Source: Octopus sinensis (Eukaryota). From it: DNA of 9,032 bases. The notes below the pieces were generated by a model, which did not search any database, was not told where the DNA came from, and was given only the letters and a program-made list of their open reading frames with translations. Below are positions 666 through 8,254 of the stretch, in pieces; the first letter of the stretch is position 1, and each line of letters starts with the position of its first letter. The stretch covers positions 1 through 9,032 of the forward strand of contig NW_021828244.1 in the NCBI RefSeq assembly GCF_006345805.1, written 5' to 3'. The position numbers and the translations under genes are program-made.

Positions 666-790
666 ATACACTCACGTGCACACACACACACACAAACACA
701 TACACGCACGCACGCACACAATCATAAACAGACTTAGAAACAAACACATACACGTACATATAAATTTATGAATGTATGTATATATATATT
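666..790. repeat. Compound (CA)n/(CACG)n/(TA)n microsatellite region
   Basis: Directly visible dinucleotide and tetranucleotide runs. Confidence 0.85.
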
Positions 791-995
791 AAGTTAATCC
801 AAACATGAAAACACAAAGAGAAAACACAACAACGCGAGGACGTGGAAAAAATATAGTATTATTGGACGCTCAGGAAGGAAGGAAGAAGGAGGGTTTTACG
901 TTTCGAGCGGAGCTCTTCGTCAGAAACATAGGAAAAGGAAAGATCCAGAGAAGGGAAGACGGAGGAAAAAAAATCGCCAACGGTACACACGCGGT
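791..995 (-). mobile_element. Penelope-like pseudo-LTR or non-autonomous derivative carrying a hammerhead
   Basis: Pyrimidine-rich minus strand with a minimal hammerhead, the type known from Penelope-like element pLTRs. Shares GAAGAGC..GCTCGAAACGT and TTCCYGAGCGTC with 5681-5855. Boundaries are approximate. Confidence 0.6.
893..927 (-). ncRNA. Minimal type I hammerhead ribozyme (HHR1)
   Basis: Minus strand reads GUUU-CUGACGA-A-GAGC(UCC)GCUC-GAAA-CGUA-AAAC. Intact CUGANGA and GAAA cores, 4-bp stem II, 4-bp stem I, palindromic ACGU in place of stem III. Predicted cleavage after GUA (897). Confidence 0.8.
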
Positions 996-1041
996 ATAAG
1001 CGTGAGTCCGTATGAAGACCTTTCATTATTTAAGAAATCTT

Positions 1042-1190
1042 ACTTTATTTACATTTACAGTTGACGGATATATGTCCTTATCTTGTTTGTTGTCAACACA
1101 ACGTTTCGGCTGATATACCCTCCAGCCTTCATCAGGTGTCTTGGGGAATTTTCGAACCTGGGTTCTCATTCCTAAGGTATTTTTCGATGT
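1042..1190 (-). mobile_element. 3' part of a short retroposon (SINE-like) carrying a hammerhead
   Basis: On the minus strand: (TAA)n, then a B-box-like GGTTCGAAA (1150-1158), then the hammerhead, then an A-rich end near 1042-1055. No 5' head is visible in the window. Confidence 0.55.
1095..1140 (-). ncRNA. Minimal type I hammerhead ribozyme (HHR2)
   Basis: Minus strand reads GACAC-CUGAUGA-A-GGCUG(GAGGGUAUAU)CAGCC-GAAA-CGUU-GUGUU. Perfect core, 5-bp stem II, 5-bp stem I (one G-U), palindromic AACGUU. Predicted cleavage after GUU (1100). Confidence 0.85.
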
Positions 1191-1212
1191 TATTATTATT
1201 ATGTATCAAGGC

Positions 1213-1245
<33 letters not shown>

Positions 1246-1255
1246 GTATCAAGCA

Positions 1256-1313
<58 letters not shown>

Positions 1314-1384
1314 TATTATTATTAATATTATTATTATTATTCTTATATTATATTATTATTATTATTATTATATTATTATTGTTG

Positions 1385-1420
<36 letters not shown>

Positions 1421-1474
1421 GTTATTATTATTATTATTATTATATTATTATTATTATTAATATTATTATATTAA

Positions 1475-1519
<45 letters not shown>

Positions 1520-1552
1520 TATTATTTCTTATTATTATTATTATTATTTATT
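1190..1552. repeat. Long imperfect (TTA/TAA)n microsatellite
   Basis: About 360 bp of TTA units with interruptions, abutting the 3' end of the LINE. Confidence 0.97.
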
Positions 1553-1767
1553 AGTCTCTTTCCATTTCTTGCTGCCGAATGTCTTCCTGACACTTAGAGC
1601 ACATACTGTACATACACATTGGTAGGCCATTAAAACAAACACACCATATTGTTCGTTTACAGAGTCATGTGACAGAGAAAATGTGGGAAGGCAGAGAGAA
1701 AAAGGAAAAAAAATGAAAAATAGAAGGGTATACAGATAAAATGAAGAAGGAAAAAAGGAAAGAAAAT

Positions 1768-4383
1768 TCACAGCGACAATGTTCTTCTCAATACGTGTGA
1801 CGTACTAGACAATCTTTTGCACTTCCTGCATGGATGGAAGTTAGACAAATTTCAGTTCCTTTTTTGATAATTCCAAGTGCTCCTACAATCACTGGTATTG
1901 TAACTGTTTTGAGATGCCACATCATTTCGATTTCCATTAGAAGATCTTTATATTCTCTCAGTTTATCAAATTCTTTTGCCGAGATATTATGGTCACAGGC
2001 TCTGCTCATGTCAATCAATTAGCAGACATTGTTGTTTTTGTCTTTTTCAATTGTTCGAGCGCATTTTGCTTTGCTATTTATCTCACCTTCTTTGCAACTA
2101 CAGTTGCTGCACTTCCCTCATGCTGTTCAACCTGGGTATTATGCATAAACTCACTTGAAAATTATTTGCTCTCCTTCATAACAGAACGAAGCTTCTTACG
2201 TCTTTCATGGTTTTTAACGATCTTTAGTATCCAATAGTTAGATTTGCAAGATAATTTGCCAGTCCAATTGTGGTGGTTTTGTAGGAGATTTCAAATTGGA
2301 TAAAGACGACCTGCGTCTGTGGTGGTGCATCTTATTGTAAGTCAGCAGCTTACGGATTTTCCTGTCAATCTTCCTTATTTTGTTCATATTCCAGTTCAAC
2401 ACATTGAAACTGTAAATAACAACAGGAGCTGCTACCGAATTTATAGCTAACACCTTGTTACGTGCATTTAACTCGGATATTAGGACTGCTTGAACTCTTC
2501 TGTAACACTCCCTCCTGATCTTCTCTTTCATACTTGCATGTTGAATGCCAGAGTCCTCATTCATTCCGAGGTATTTGTAAGTTTGCTCCTGCTCGAGTTC
2601 TTTTACGACTGTGTCAACATCCAACACCACTGATCATGCGGTCTCCAGTTTCCTTTTCTGGAAAGTGACCAAATTCCATCCCAAGACCAAATTCTATCCC
2701 AAGACCAAATTCTATCCCAATGTCATTACCGAATGCTTTCACAGTACGTAGTAGTCCTTCAAGCTCATTATCGTCTTTGCCATAAGAGTTTTAAGTCATC
2801 CATATAAAATAGATTACTTATTTTCACGTCGCCAATTTTATATCCATACCCTATTCTGTTGAGTTCACTTATTAGGAGTATTAAGACTATGCAGAAAATT
2901 AAAGGTGAAAGTGAGTCACCTTAGAAAATGCCGCCGTTGATACTAATATTTTCTGTGGTCAGTACTCCATTAGAGTGGTATAATTGGGGATTTGTATTCC
3001 ACATTGACATATTGTGCTTCAGGAAGCTTAAAATCACAGGAGAAATTTTGAAGATATCCATCGATTTCTAGATCCATGAATGCGGTATGCTGTCGAAGGC
3101 CTTTTTATAATCAATCCATGCAGAACTGAGATTTCTGCGTTTGATATGATAGTTCTCAAGGATCGTGCGATTGATTAAGAATTAGTCTATTTATCCATAT
3201 GAACTTCGTCGGCACCTTTTTCTTTTTTTTCAGTGGGGAAAATATCGTTCTGTTCCATAAATTTGTATGTTTTCTCCACGAGGATGGATGTTAAAATTTT
3301 ATACGTGGTAGATAGACATGTTATGGGCCGTTAGTTCGGGGGGGAAAGTTGGTTTCATTATTCTTCGGGGGTAGGGATATAATACCTCTTGCTAACCAAT
3401 CGGGTGTTTTCGCAAGATCGCTCATAATTTCATTGAATAACTAGACTAACTTTTCGTGTGCGCACGGGAACGAGGTAAGCCAGAAATTTGGCATCCTATC
3501 ATTACTAGGAGATTTCCACTTATGAGCCTTCATGAGTGCCATCCGTAGGTCTGCTTTTGTGATGTCTTCTCCTGCTTGTTCTGGTAAGTTTTGGTAGGAT
3601 CCTTCTGTGTGTCTAATCCAGTCCGCATTTTCATTGTAAGTCTTTTCATTATTACAGATATTTTCCCCAGAAGTTTTCAACTTTTTCCATGGCAGTGGGG
3701 CGGGGGGTCTTCAATGATTATTTTCTCCTTCCCTATTTCTCTGTAGAATGTTTTCGCTTTGGATGCGAACAGCGGATTTTGTTTGTAAAATTTGCTTCTT
3801 CTAAAATCTTCGTATTTTTTTAGATTTTGCTTAGACTTTTTGTTGCAGTGTTTCTTTTGATGAAAGCAGTTATTCTCTTGGTGAGAATCTATGGTTTCTC
3901 TTCATCTTTCTTCCTCTTCTGTTTTTTACATTGTTTCCACATGTGAGTTCATTCAATATTGATATTTCACCTCTCATTATTTCAATATCTTTTTCAATTT
4001 TACTTTCCTGTCTAGAATCTTTCTCAGATTTTTATTTCTTTCTCTTATCAGAGGCATACAACTGGTTTCAATTGTCTTAGCAGCTGCGTAAATAATTTCC
4101 TTTAATTCAATGACGTCTGGTTTTAGTTCTTGTATAATTTCCTTTGTTACATAGTTTCCAGCTTTAATTTGTTTTAATTTTGGATTGTATTTGAGAGTTT
4201 ATGAAGTAGTTCTCTATCATGCATATCAGTGCGTCTTACAACTGCAAGCTCATTCAGGATTTTCTGCTTCAGTTCTGTCATAGACTTTCTGGGTTCTTCA
4301 GTAAATGCGTAGTCTTCAAATATTGTTTCTTTACCACCTTCCTCTGTATCTTCTTCAAGTTCGCTACAATTTATGTCTCCAGA

Positions 4384-4386
<3 letters not shown>
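1768..4386 (-). pseudogene. Disrupted RT / restriction-like endonuclease ORF
   Basis: Minus-strand motifs in canonical order: IIYAAAK (~4080), KWKSPSNDRMPNFWL (~3480-3525), N*RPITCLSTTYKILTSI (~3283-3336), WIDYKKAFDSIPHSWI (~3071-3118), GIF*GDSLSPL (2900-2932), YMDD (2795-2806), GMEFG (~2670), YKYLG (~2570), LNARNKVLAINSVAAPVVIYSF, LIDMS..EFDKLREYKDL..IPVIVGALG (RLE), and HVLRRTLSL* with the stop at 1768-1770. Many stops, frameshifts and deletions. Confidence 0.92.
2667..2720. repeat. 3 x 18-bp tandem repeat inside RT
   Basis: GACCAAATTCCATCCCAA, GACCAAATTCTATCCCAA, GACCAAATTCTATCCCAA. The minus strand encodes GIEFGL-GIEFGL-GMEFG. Confidence 0.95.
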
Positions 4387-4454
<68 letters not shown>

Positions 4455-4464
4455 CATTGTTATT
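4386..4464. repeat. (TTA/TAA)n microsatellite
   Basis: TTA run abutting the 5' end of the LINE. Confidence 0.97.
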
Positions 4465-4467
4465 GAA

Positions 4468-4698
4468 AGCGTCGAGTTGACAGAGTAGTGATCACGACGG
4501 GCGAAGTACTTAGCAGAATTTCATCAGTCTTTACGTTCTGCATTCAAATTCCACCGAGGTCGACTTTGCCTTTCTTCCTTTGGGGGTCGATGAAATAAGT
4601 ACCAGGTGAGTATTGGCGTCGATGTATTCGACTCATCCCCTCGCCCGAAATTTCTGGCCTTGTGCTAAAATTTTTAAATCATTATTATTATCATTATT
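4468..4698 (+). mobile_element. tRNA-derived SINE family A, older diverged copy, tail type II
   Basis: Aligns by eye to 7867-8031 (head; TACGTTCTGCATTCAAATTCCACCGAGGTCGACTTTGCCTTTC; GTCGA-N5-TCGAC). Tail CCCCTCGCCCGAAATTTCTGGCCTTGTG followed by (ATT)n. Confidence 0.88.
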
Positions 4699-5163
4699 GA
4701 GTGAGAGAGCAGCACATGCCATCAAAGTGACACTCGAGTACAATTATACGAAGCCCATTACACCCATCATGGCTACCCGTATGATAAGGACACACCAAGC
4801 ACATACATCACAACCATATGTGCGCGACATGGTGATCTCATATCAAGATATACAGAGCATGACCCTGCAGGTGGGGCCCGGTTAGAATTTTCTTCATGTC
4901 GAGTAGCCCACCCCACCTTTCAACACATGGCTATAATGCTGCCCTCCCCCCACTACTCCTGCTCGTGATCAGAAATGCACATATCGTCAGCCACTAAGAG
5001 ACATACTTAACTGGTTAAGATCAAACAATTGACAAACAAATCTGTGATATTGAGAAGAATATTTGCGGTAGCCCATATTTTATACCAAGACAAAGCGTGT
5101 GCATGATAACACTTCCAGTCAGTTAAGATTGGAAGCCATGAGATCCAGTGCCTGATAATGCAC
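4699..5163. mobile_element. Unclassified non-coding interspersed repeat adjoining (ATT)n
   Basis: Starts sharply after an (ATT)n tract with GAGTGAGAGAGCAG and is more GC-rich than its flanks. I recall it as an abundant octopus repeat, but it is single-copy in this window, so this is unverified. Confidence 0.5.
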
Positions 5164-5310
5164 TACATTCTGAGTTCAAATCTCGTCGATGTCGACTTTG
5201 CCTTTCATCTTTTCGAGGTCGATAAATGAAGTACCAGTTGAACACCGGGGTCGATGTAATCGACTATGTCCTCCCCCAATTTTCAGGCCTTGTGCCTATA
5301 GTAGAAAGTA
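5164..5310 (+). mobile_element. 5'-truncated SINE family A, tail type II
   Basis: Begins at TACATTCTGAGTTCAAAT (B box), followed by the core GTCGACTTTGCCTTTCATC..GTCGATAAATGAAGTACCAG and tail TCCCCCAATTTTCAGGCCTTGTGCCTATAGTAGAAA. Confidence 0.9.
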
Positions 5311-5311
5311 C

Positions 5312-5382
5312 TGTTGTTGTTCGTGTTGGTGGTGGTGGTGGTGGTGTGTGGGGTGACGGTAGTAGTAGTAGTAGTAGTAGTA

Positions 5383-5414
<32 letters not shown>

Positions 5415-5433
5415 TAGTAGTAGTAGTAGTAGT
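5312..5433. repeat. Compound (GTT)n-(GGT)n-(AGT)n microsatellite
   Basis: Directly visible at the SINE 3' end. Confidence 0.95.
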
Positions 5434-5614
5434 GGGACTGCGTAAGGCATATATTATGCCTACTGGTTTATACCTTGGATTTACAAAGCGCTCCGTAACC
5501 AATATATCTTCGGTTATCTGAGTACTACGCTAGCCATGTTTCTAACTGAATTGCTGATAAGGCGATATCCAGGATTATGATTGTCCTCTCATTTATTTTA
5601 GTATATATACTACG

Positions 5615-5683
5615 TACGACAGGCTTTTTTCTGGTCTCGCTCGTCTACCAAATCCATTCACAAGACTTTGTTCGAACCAAGAT
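5615..5683 (-). mobile_element. Fragment of SINE family B
   Basis: CGTCTACCAAATCCATTCACAAGACTTTG is the near reverse complement of CAAAGCCTTGTGAGTGGATTTGGTAGACG at ~8623-8651. Confidence 0.85.
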
Positions 5684-5855
5684 CGCTAGCCACTACACAC
5701 ATTTTTTCCTCTCCGTGTTTCTTTCTGTGTTCCTTTCTGTGGAAGAGCTTAGGCTCGAAACGTTAAAGACTTTTCAATTCCCGAGCGTCTGTTTGTTTCT
5801 ACACCCCCTGCCTTCGTCTTTTGTTGTTCTTGTTTTTTTTTGTAAATTTTCTCTA
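5681..5855 (+). mobile_element. Penelope-like pLTR-type repeat with a variant hammerhead
   Basis: Same layout and shared motifs as the reverse complement of 791-995. Boundaries are approximate. Confidence 0.6.
5733..5768 (+). ncRNA. Minimal hammerhead-like motif with a variant core (HHR3)
   Basis: CUUU-CUGUGGA-A-GAGC(UUAG)GCUC-GAAA-CGUU-AAAG. All stems are intact, but the core is CUGUGGA (A6 to U) rather than CUGANGA. Confidence 0.65.
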
Positions 5856-6504: not shown

Positions 6505-7133
6505 CATGAAAGCATAATCTATTTCTTTACTACCCACAAGGGGCTAAACACAGAGAGGACAAACAAGGACAGACAAACGGATTAAGTCGATTACATCGAC
6601 CCCAGTGCGTAACTGGTACTTAATTATCGACCCCGAAAGGATGAAAGCAAAAGTCGACCTCGTCGGATTTGGACTCAGAACGTAACGGCAGACGAAATAC
6701 TTATTTCTTTACTACCACAAGGGGCTAAACACAGGAGGACAAACAAGGACGACAAACGGATTAAGTCGATTACATCGACCCCAGTGAGTAACTGGTACTT
6801 AATTTATCGACCCCGAAAGGATGAAAGGCAAAGTCGACCTCGGCGGAATTTGGACTTAGAACGTAGCGGCAGACGAAATACCTATTTCTTTACTACCCAC
6901 CAGGGGCTAAACACAGAGGGGACAAACAAGGACAGACAAACGGATTAAGTCGATTACATCGACCCCAGTGCGTAACTGGTACTTAATTTATCGACCCCGA
7001 AAGGATGAAAGGCAAAGTCGACCTCGGTGGAATTTGAACTCAGTACGTAGCGGCAGACGAAATACCGCTTAGCAACTCGCCCGGCGTGCTAACGTTTCTG
7101 CCAGCTCGCCGCCTTACATGAAAGCATAATCTA
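6505..7133. other. 17-bp target site duplication CATGAAAGCATAATCTA
   Basis: Identical copies at 6505-6521 and 7117-7133 bracket the SINE trimer. Confidence 0.95.
6520..7116 (-). mobile_element. Tandem trimer of SINE family A, tail type I
   Basis: One full unit at 6882-7116 (A box TGGCAGAAACG, B box GAGTTCAAATT), plus two ~181-bp headless units at 6701-6881 and 6520-6700 that both start at GTATTTCGTCTGCC. Confidence 0.95.
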
Positions 7134-7866: not shown

Positions 7867-8100
7867 GGCGGCGAACTGGCAGAAACGTTAGCACGCCGGG
7901 CGAAATGCGTAGCCGTATTTCGTCTGCCGTTACGTTCTGAGTTCAAATTCCACCAAGGTCGACTTTGCCTTTCATCCTTTCGGGGTCGATAAATTATGTA
8001 CCAGTTACGCACTGGGGTCGATGTAATCGACTTAATCCGTTTGTCTGTCCTTGTTTAGCCCGTCTATGTTTAGACCCTTGTGGACAATATAAAAAATAAG
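7867..8100 (+). mobile_element. Full-length SINE family A, tail type I
   Basis: Highly similar reverse complement of 6882-7113, with Pol III A and B boxes and an A-rich end. Confidence 0.93.
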
Positions 8101-8254
8101 AAACCTCAGCACGCCGGGCGAAATACTTAGCGGTATTTGCCTTTCATCCTTTCGGGGTCGATAATTATAGAACCAGTTGCGTCCTGGAGTCGATCTAATC
8201 GACTGGCCCCCTCTCCCAAAATTTCGGACCTTGTGGCTAGAGTAGGAAACAAAA
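8099..8254 (+). mobile_element. Second SINE A monomer, internally deleted, tail type II
   Basis: AGCACGCCGGGCGAAATACTTAGCGGTATTT joins directly to GCCTTTCATCC, so the B-box segment is absent. Tail CCCCCTCTCCCAAAATTTCGGACCTTGTG. Confidence 0.9.

Follow-up and report, generated by a model that had tools for sequence, protein, structure and literature searches.

Three hammerhead ribozyme motifs lie within 5 kb of one another in a stretch of octopus DNA; what carries them, and what could they cut? The stretch, referred to as the window, is one entire contig of 9,032 nt (NW_021828244.1) from the 2.72-Gb genome of Octopus sinensis (assembly GCF_006345805.1). The original prediction, made from the letters of the window, held that three distinct minimal hammerheads sit there in very high-copy, non-autonomous retroelements akin to Penelope-like elements (PLEs), and that dispersed copies could dimerise in trans and cut host pre-mRNA. 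We consider it highly probable that motifs 1 and 3 lie in 5′-truncated 3′ ends of PLEs, that motif 2 belongs to a tRNA-headed non-coding element likely copied by Penelope-type proteins, and that the hammerheads likely serve the source elements only, the dispersed copies likely being dead on arrival.

Three motifs in two repeat lineages

We scanned the window with a descriptor composed, in order, of stem I, CUGWNGA, an optional base, stem II, GAAA-palindrome-UH and stem I. Exactly three motifs were matched, at the positions and with the stems and N17 sites originally predicted. Three matches were obtained in 3,000 dinucleotide-shuffled windows, a chance level of 0.001 per window that is far below the three observed, although the descriptor was modelled on the finding itself, which makes the shuffle control generous. 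No hammerhead model in Rfam matched the window at E ≤ 10. The motifs and the repeats that hold them are as follows.

893..927, minus strand: motif 1, minimal type I hammerhead with canonical core CUGACGA, an extra A, 4-bp stem II, CG palindrome and N17 = A; putative cut after 897
1095..1140, minus strand: motif 2, minimal type I hammerhead with canonical core CUGAUGA, 5-6-bp stem II, 5-bp stem I and N17 = U; putative cut after 1100
5733..5768, plus strand: motif 3, minimal hammerhead fold with variant core CUGUGGA (A6U) and N17 = U; putative cut after 5764
772..995, minus strand: family A repeat, apparently the 5′-truncated 3′ end of a Neptune-type PLE, with a (TA)n junction at about 772-789
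1040..1202, minus strand: family B body, a copy without tRNA-like head and without 3′ tail
5680..5828, plus strand: family C repeat, which has lost 13 nt on the 3′ side of the motif; apparently a 5′-truncated 3′ end from a Neptune-type PLE lineage

All three motifs have an extra base after A9, a G10.1-C11.1 pair, a palindromic CG in place of stem III, and paired stems I and II. Motifs 1 and 2 satisfy the core C3 U4 G5 A6 N7 G8 A9 ... G12 A13 A14 A15.1 U16.1 H17, while motif 3 drops out once A6 is required; the shared CUGWNGA frame therefore stands as a fold in all three, motif 3 being a variant with U at position 6 rather than a canonical member. Motifs 1 and 2, both with canonical cores, lie on the same strand 203 nt apart (897-1100, minus).

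Motif 1 (family A) and motif 3 (family C) are homologous, with 82% identity over 34 nt around the motif and common downstream blocks. The GAGC/GCUC stem II that they have in common is therefore inherited, and the claim that the stems of the three motifs covary does not hold for it; nor are there three distinct motifs, since they fall into two lineages, A/C and B.

The view that PLE-type minimal hammerheads occur here in very high-copy repeats was borne out. The genome has 27,961 matches to an exact A/C pattern and 3,540 to a B pattern that requires an intact core, with no match for either reversed-pattern control, and motif 2 has 1,018 exact 40-nt copies in the genome. Motif-spanning copies in 60 fixed-position 10-kb samples (599,800 bases) numbered 17 for A/C and 8 for B, which gives roughly 77,000 A/C and 36,000 B copies genome-wide, in the order of 100,000 together, from small counts and with wide error; only four family motifs in these samples passed a strict descriptor. 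Family copies average 0.38 per 9 kb across the genome, so that a 9-kb stretch with three of them has a Poisson probability of 0.007, but copies cluster, and three family copies were also found in 2 of the 60 samples. The motif density of the window is high, not extreme. Elsewhere (L079, L086), C and A ends stand in direct tandem ~190 nt apart, with A inside the (TA)n tail of C; a stem I swapped between the two would have 3 bp.

Such motifs have a close precedent in the hammerheads of metazoan PLE pseudo-LTRs (LTR, long terminal repeat). The parts of Cervera & de la Pena 2014 (PMC4209133) that describe these report the same lack of stem III, a palindromic 15.2-16.2, the extra base between 9 and 10.1, the G10.1-C11.1 pair and a stem I of 4-5 bp, as well as mostly single dispersed motifs from truncated PLEs and several consensus families per genome. 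The octopus counts (27,961 + 3,540) exceed the ~9,000 given there for Xenopus, with descriptors that differ.

Families A and C as ends of Penelope-like elements

An upstream walk from C-type motifs entered GIY-YIG coding sequence, with an endonuclease ≤1.5 kb upstream in 4 of 21 C-type loci picked by pattern and in one fixed-position sample. At L238, broken frames match RVT_1 at E = 6.7e-8 and, under the cut-off, GIY-YIG at E = 0.0013, and a C-type motif follows about 550 nt further on; sister C subfamilies lie downstream of reverse transcriptase (RT)/GIY-YIG frames in L238, L239, L235, L214 and L098. A second PLE, 82% identical to the C-linked RT over 79 residues, ends in an A-type motif beyond a 2.7-kb CA-rich spacer. 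When 19 more loci were selected by means of the A-linked endonuclease, 13 had a same-strand A repeat 1.9-4.1 kb downstream, where the sampled density predicts about 0.07 per 5 kb and strand by chance. One locus (L322) has A repeats on both sides of the open reading frame (ORF), a tandem pLTR-ORF-pLTR arrangement (pLTR, pseudo-LTR); another (L325) has a motif identical to motif 1 of the window 1.8 kb behind a GIY-YIG fragment, as do 2 of 20 such loci in all. RT/GIY-YIG frames were thus found upstream of both A- and C-type motifs on the same strand, and A and C appear to be mostly truncated 3′ ends of autonomous endonuclease-bearing (EN+) PLEs with RT and C-terminal GIY-YIG, whose frames are now broken. 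The label of non-autonomous retroelements accordingly does not fit A and C, while B does look non-autonomous.

The frames in L241 and L239 contain a CX2-5CxxC linker, of which the L238 frame lacks the first Cys. The linker is a mark of Neptune or Nematis PLEs in the portion of Craig et al. 2021 (PMC8557442) on these elements, and would place the A/C hosts in one of the two. That portion also describes RT with C-terminal GIY-YIG, a hammerhead near the 3′ end, a microsatellite bias and tandem pLTRs, all as seen here; unlike those elements, family A has a 2-4-kb CA-rich spacer from endonuclease to hammerhead.

We then compared motifs across mixed subfamilies. The motif differs at 0.023 in A and 0.040 in C, against about 0.11 in the flanks (8 and 14 copies), and N7 and N17 vary freely; the hammerhead fold is kept between A/C subfamilies. 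The core itself is less constant. Among the first 100 A/C matches listed (chromosome C1, hand count), 19 had CUGA, 29 CCGA (U4C) and 52 CUGU (A6U), so that 81 had U4C or A6U, with no other variant and no double. Both substitutions are fixed by subfamily, and at the A loci picked by endonuclease each of the 12 downstream motifs that could be read had U4C. Cores of this kind are absent from the passages of PMC4209133 cited above, which report U3-A8. U4C and A6C lower hammerhead activity, U4C still being sufficient in a viroid, in the results given by Perreault 2011 (PMC3088659, in part); for A6U we infer an effect on activity. In the relevant sections of PMC11167929, the hammerhead of one PLE cut in vitro only with protein, catalytic mutants still inserted, and no RNA-seq ends fell at the cut site. 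Relaxed or deliberately weak catalysis in the A/C families would fit these results.

A pattern that bars the usual stem of B returned 153 motifs, most with other stems. We examined 24 non-B relatives among the first 30 matches listed, with relatedness ignored: stem I pair 2 was Watson-Crick in 17 against 9.5 after shuffling (p = 0.0002) and pair 10.3-11.3 in 21 against 17.6 (p = 0.006), while the other five of seven free columns were not significant, and N17 was U or C in 23 of the 24. These low-copy, strongly diverged motifs (L245-L274) have canonical cores and varied stem II loops; several have downstream blocks in common with A/C and look like older subfamilies.

If cores have changed while the fold persists, the A/C motifs may no longer be ribozymes, the fold being kept only as a protein-binding or priming signal. 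We regard this as possible but on the whole unlikely. It would account for the fixation of U4C and A6U in the most numerous subfamilies, for U4C in 12 of 12 readable motifs downstream of an endonuclease, and for the dispensability of cleavage in vitro in another PLE (PMC11167929, the sections above). A mere binding signal sits less well with the constancy of G8, A9, G12-A14, the palindrome and H17 while N7 varies, with U4C and A6U never occurring together in the 100 motifs listed, with the canonical cores of older relatives, and with the sufficiency of U4C activity in a viroid (PMC3088659, as above).

The outlines of the copies bear on how A and C spread. Their 5′ ends are ragged and their 3′ ends fixed, with (TA)n directly behind the latter in 25 of 29 copies for A and in 17 of 29 for C. 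Most are 150-230 nt long with many 5′ ends in a narrow zone, and the top-scoring A copies are 97-98% alike, as would be expected had A and C spread mainly as short fixed-length non-autonomous elements, SINE- or retrozyme-like (SINE, short interspersed nuclear element), rather than as truncation products. Given the raggedness of the 5′ ends, the continuation of longer copies into PLE coding sequence, the lack of any promoter-like head seen and the rarity of tandem neighbours within 1 kb (1/30, 3/29 and 2/29 loci), we think this unlikely and retain truncation of autonomous PLEs as the preferred reading. Non-LTR retrozymes, in the parts of their description consulted here (bioRxiv 10.64898/2026.07.22.740005), are likewise non-coding and PLE-derived with a type I hammerhead, but are defined by tandem repeats, and A, B and C are rarely tandem and fall outside that definition.

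Several other candidates were set aside. The first 40 GIY-YIG loci (20 plus 20 refetched wider, with seven repeats) belong to other PLE families, and we took the A/C copies in their vicinity to have inserted there by chance. The 5′ flank of L067 proved single-copy and a dead end. Another PLE family (L158, L167, L170, L171, L183, L190) has open frames of 780-883 aa and its own hammerhead 3′ of GIY-YIG, with a U3-A8 covariant core and a short palindromic stem III. Broken frames at L244:129-2426 (plus strand) resemble, by eye, the pol gene of an LTR retrotransposon.

Family B as a composite with a tRNA-like head

Full-length B is ~300 nt long and non-coding. Its ~75-nt tRNA-like head is followed by (AAT)n and then by the body with the hammerhead; a tail of ~30 nt is optional. 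RNA polymerase III (Pol III) boxes stand at tRNA spacing in the heads, the B box in 37 of 45 and the A box, which was part of the search anchor, in 44 of 45. ARAGORN called no tRNA in 10 loci at default settings, and 2 of 45 heads at the 80% and 12 of 45 at the 70% threshold, the counts being without a shuffle control; the heads had no Rfam tRNA match.

B pairs are mostly inverted, not tandem. Among 30 loci selected by the tail, an inverted arm was joined at the 5′ side in 17 and an inverted body was present in 11, none of which (0/11) carried the tail. Insertions of PLEs, as described in the portion of PMC8557442 used above, include inverted 5′-truncated copies with a 30-40-nt tail at one end, and the sections of PMC11167929 on insertion attribute such a one-sided tail to two reverse-transcription start sites. 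The inverted pairs with a one-sided tail match this arrangement, and we read B insertion as probably PLE-driven: B is likely a short tRNA-headed non-coding element carried by PLE machinery. A bolder reading, which we put forward tentatively and place a little short of an even chance, is that B (~36,000 copies) is a genuine Pol III SINE whose hammerhead and tail signal lets it parasitise a Penelope-type RT-endonuclease, with a PLE and not a LINE (long interspersed nuclear element) as driver, and that the most prolific autonomous PLEs have meanwhile tuned their ribozyme down by fixed U4C or A6U.

The nearest known analogues are the SINE-like elements Sm-alpha and Sj-alpha of Schistosoma, which in the parts of PMC6765202 consulted have, like B, a Pol III-type promoter followed by a hammerhead. 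B is unlike them in forming single or inverted dispersed units rather than tandem arrays and in its minimal hammerhead, internal (AAT)n and one-sided PLE tail.

Head and body could instead have separate origins, B being a chimera in which an ordinary tRNA SINE with an (AAT)n tail, moved by a LINE, is combined with a PLE end that carries the hammerhead and attaches to such tails. B bodies do occur behind (AAT)n tails of other repeats, the window included, the head stood without a body in 4 of 12 incidental cases, and the genome has a LINE that inserts at (AAT)n. Against this, a head or head end lies upstream of the body in 30 of 48 B copies and in 15 of the 30 tail-picked loci, and no body was found to continue upstream into PLE coding sequence. 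In paired copies the point of inversion lies within the head, which means that head and body were copied together; a chimera is accordingly improbable, and we keep to B as one composite element.

We next asked how B copies decay, in a set picked irrespective of the hammerhead from which 3 of 30 loci duplicating one insertion were dropped. Hammerhead and flank diverged alike at non-CpG positions (40/822 vs 121/2200, 0.049 vs 0.055, p = 0.53) and at CpG positions (18/101 vs 28/166, 0.178 vs 0.169, p = 0.87), and all core and palindrome letters were kept in 9 of 28 copies and in 7 of 21 of a second set. There is thus no excess conservation of core or stems across B copies: the hammerhead decays at the flank rate, an outcome named in advance as counting against the original prediction. 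With the motif kept between A/C subfamilies and decaying in B copies, it is apparently the source elements that are under selection rather than the copies once inserted.

Two candidate links between B and a driver were rejected. Same-strand B pairs a few kb apart, considered as pLTRs around an ORF, are separate insertions or local duplication. Remnants of PLE-like RT genes that contain or adjoin B units (L201:1615-2037, L278, L304) look like insertion targets, L201 alone having been inspected; its remnant we take from its motif to be Naiad-like. Four loci (L297, L298, L300, L301) hold a single B insertion in four copies with identical flanks, a local segmental duplication on C1.

Source elements, host RNA and the rest of the window

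These observations would fit a simple scheme. By analogy with known PLE biology, reverse transcription would begin at an endonuclease nick, close to the 3′ end of the element RNA, and would usually stop after 150-250 nt, an early stop that would make the hammerhead-bearing end the most copied part. Within a tandem source element, two motifs of the same family, with help from the protein that the element encodes, would pair through the ACGU palindrome and cut weakly. Insertion can probably do without cleavage, in which case U4C and A6U could become fixed in prolific subfamilies with the fold kept.

Several points weigh against this account. The window's own C subfamily (CUGUGGA) is not tied to an ORF and is linked through sister subfamilies (78% over 102 nt to L238); 6 of the 19 endonuclease-picked loci had no downstream A in the stretch examined; and the linker fits Neptune and Nematis alike. 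Neutral decay was cleanly measured for B alone, in 28 copies that include both arms of some pairs. Neither tblastn of B loci nor a relaxed-pattern search, both non-exhaustive, found an autonomous partner for B, and to this are added the bodiless heads noted above.

Could dispersed copies nevertheless act on host RNA? In a double hammerhead, each strand is cut by the core of the other, which depends on its partner's stem I. Two motifs of one family would form 4-5 bp of swapped stem I, an A/C pair 3 bp, and an A/B or B/C pair 0-1 bp. Motifs 1 and 2, although neighbours, are thus incompatible as a cis heterodimer. Even for homodimers, the active dimer lies ~6 kcal/mol above the monomers by nearest-neighbour energy, a model that omits core tertiary contacts and Mg2+, and the pairing probability of stem I in its sequence context is near 0. 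A and B are covered by contigs from four sequencing runs whose kind is uncertain, and contigs do not resolve RNA ends. The proposal that dispersed copies dimerise in trans and cut host pre-mRNA is unsupported and, in view of neutral decay and variant cores, seems very improbable: tens of thousands of motifs keep the pattern and schistosome SINE hammerheads cut in cis or trans in vitro (PMC6765202, the same parts), but B motifs diverge at the flank rate, 81 of the 100 listed A/C motifs carry U4C or A6U, of which U4C, like A6C, reduces activity (PMC3088659, as above), stem I pairing fails between lineages, and dimer formation is computed to be uphill even for homodimers.

PLE minimal hammerheads are already known; what is less ordinary here is the variant cores in the most prolific families and the likely PLE-driven SINE. 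In the literature listings searched, no publication dealt with hammerheads of octopus or with a tRNA SINE that a PLE drives; the search took in neither Lunse 2017, supplements nor Repbase/Dfam, so that the core variants may already have been listed and A, B or C already named. The main text of a 2026 repeat annotation of Octopus vulgaris (PMC13282606, in the form available) contains 0 occurrences of 'ribozyme' or 'hammerhead', and much of this short-repeat load may stand as unclassified SINE in annotations. The function of PLE hammerheads is an open question in the field. Here sister subfamilies differ widely in copy number and have canonical, U4C or A6U cores, which makes them a natural series for asking whether cleavage matters for transposition. 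If the B driver were confirmed, B would show that a Penelope-type enzyme can mobilise a tRNA-headed SINE, and would define a minimal cis signal for such enzymes.

Two further features adjoin the B body.

1215..1553, minus strand: (AAT)n microsatellite that forms the 5′ junction with the B body and is internal to full-length B
1554..4385, minus strand: decayed RT-encoding LINE between two (AAT)n arrays, from which its outer limits are inferred; tblastn matches at 1839-3968

This LINE, presumably Dong/R4-like, is unrelated to the hammerheads. It was recognised through a better-preserved copy elsewhere, and Pfam searches of six short frames from it in the window gave nothing significant. At L197 a LINE of the same kind separates the head from the body of a B element, the same arrangement as in the window. 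The window was predicted to lack a Penelope RT or GIY-YIG ORF, and indeed no PLE protein match was found in it, though it does hold this decayed RT-encoding LINE.

The microsatellites and SINE-like repeats of the window resemble those of octopus. One SINE-like family is present in many copies in the window, at 6519-7115 (minus strand) and at 7867-8095, 4466-4690, 5163-5300 and 8110-8240 (plus strand). It forms a three-unit tandem array of 184 nt and a 229-nt inverted pair (91%) 753 nt apart, and we take it to resemble the octopus OK/OR SINEs.

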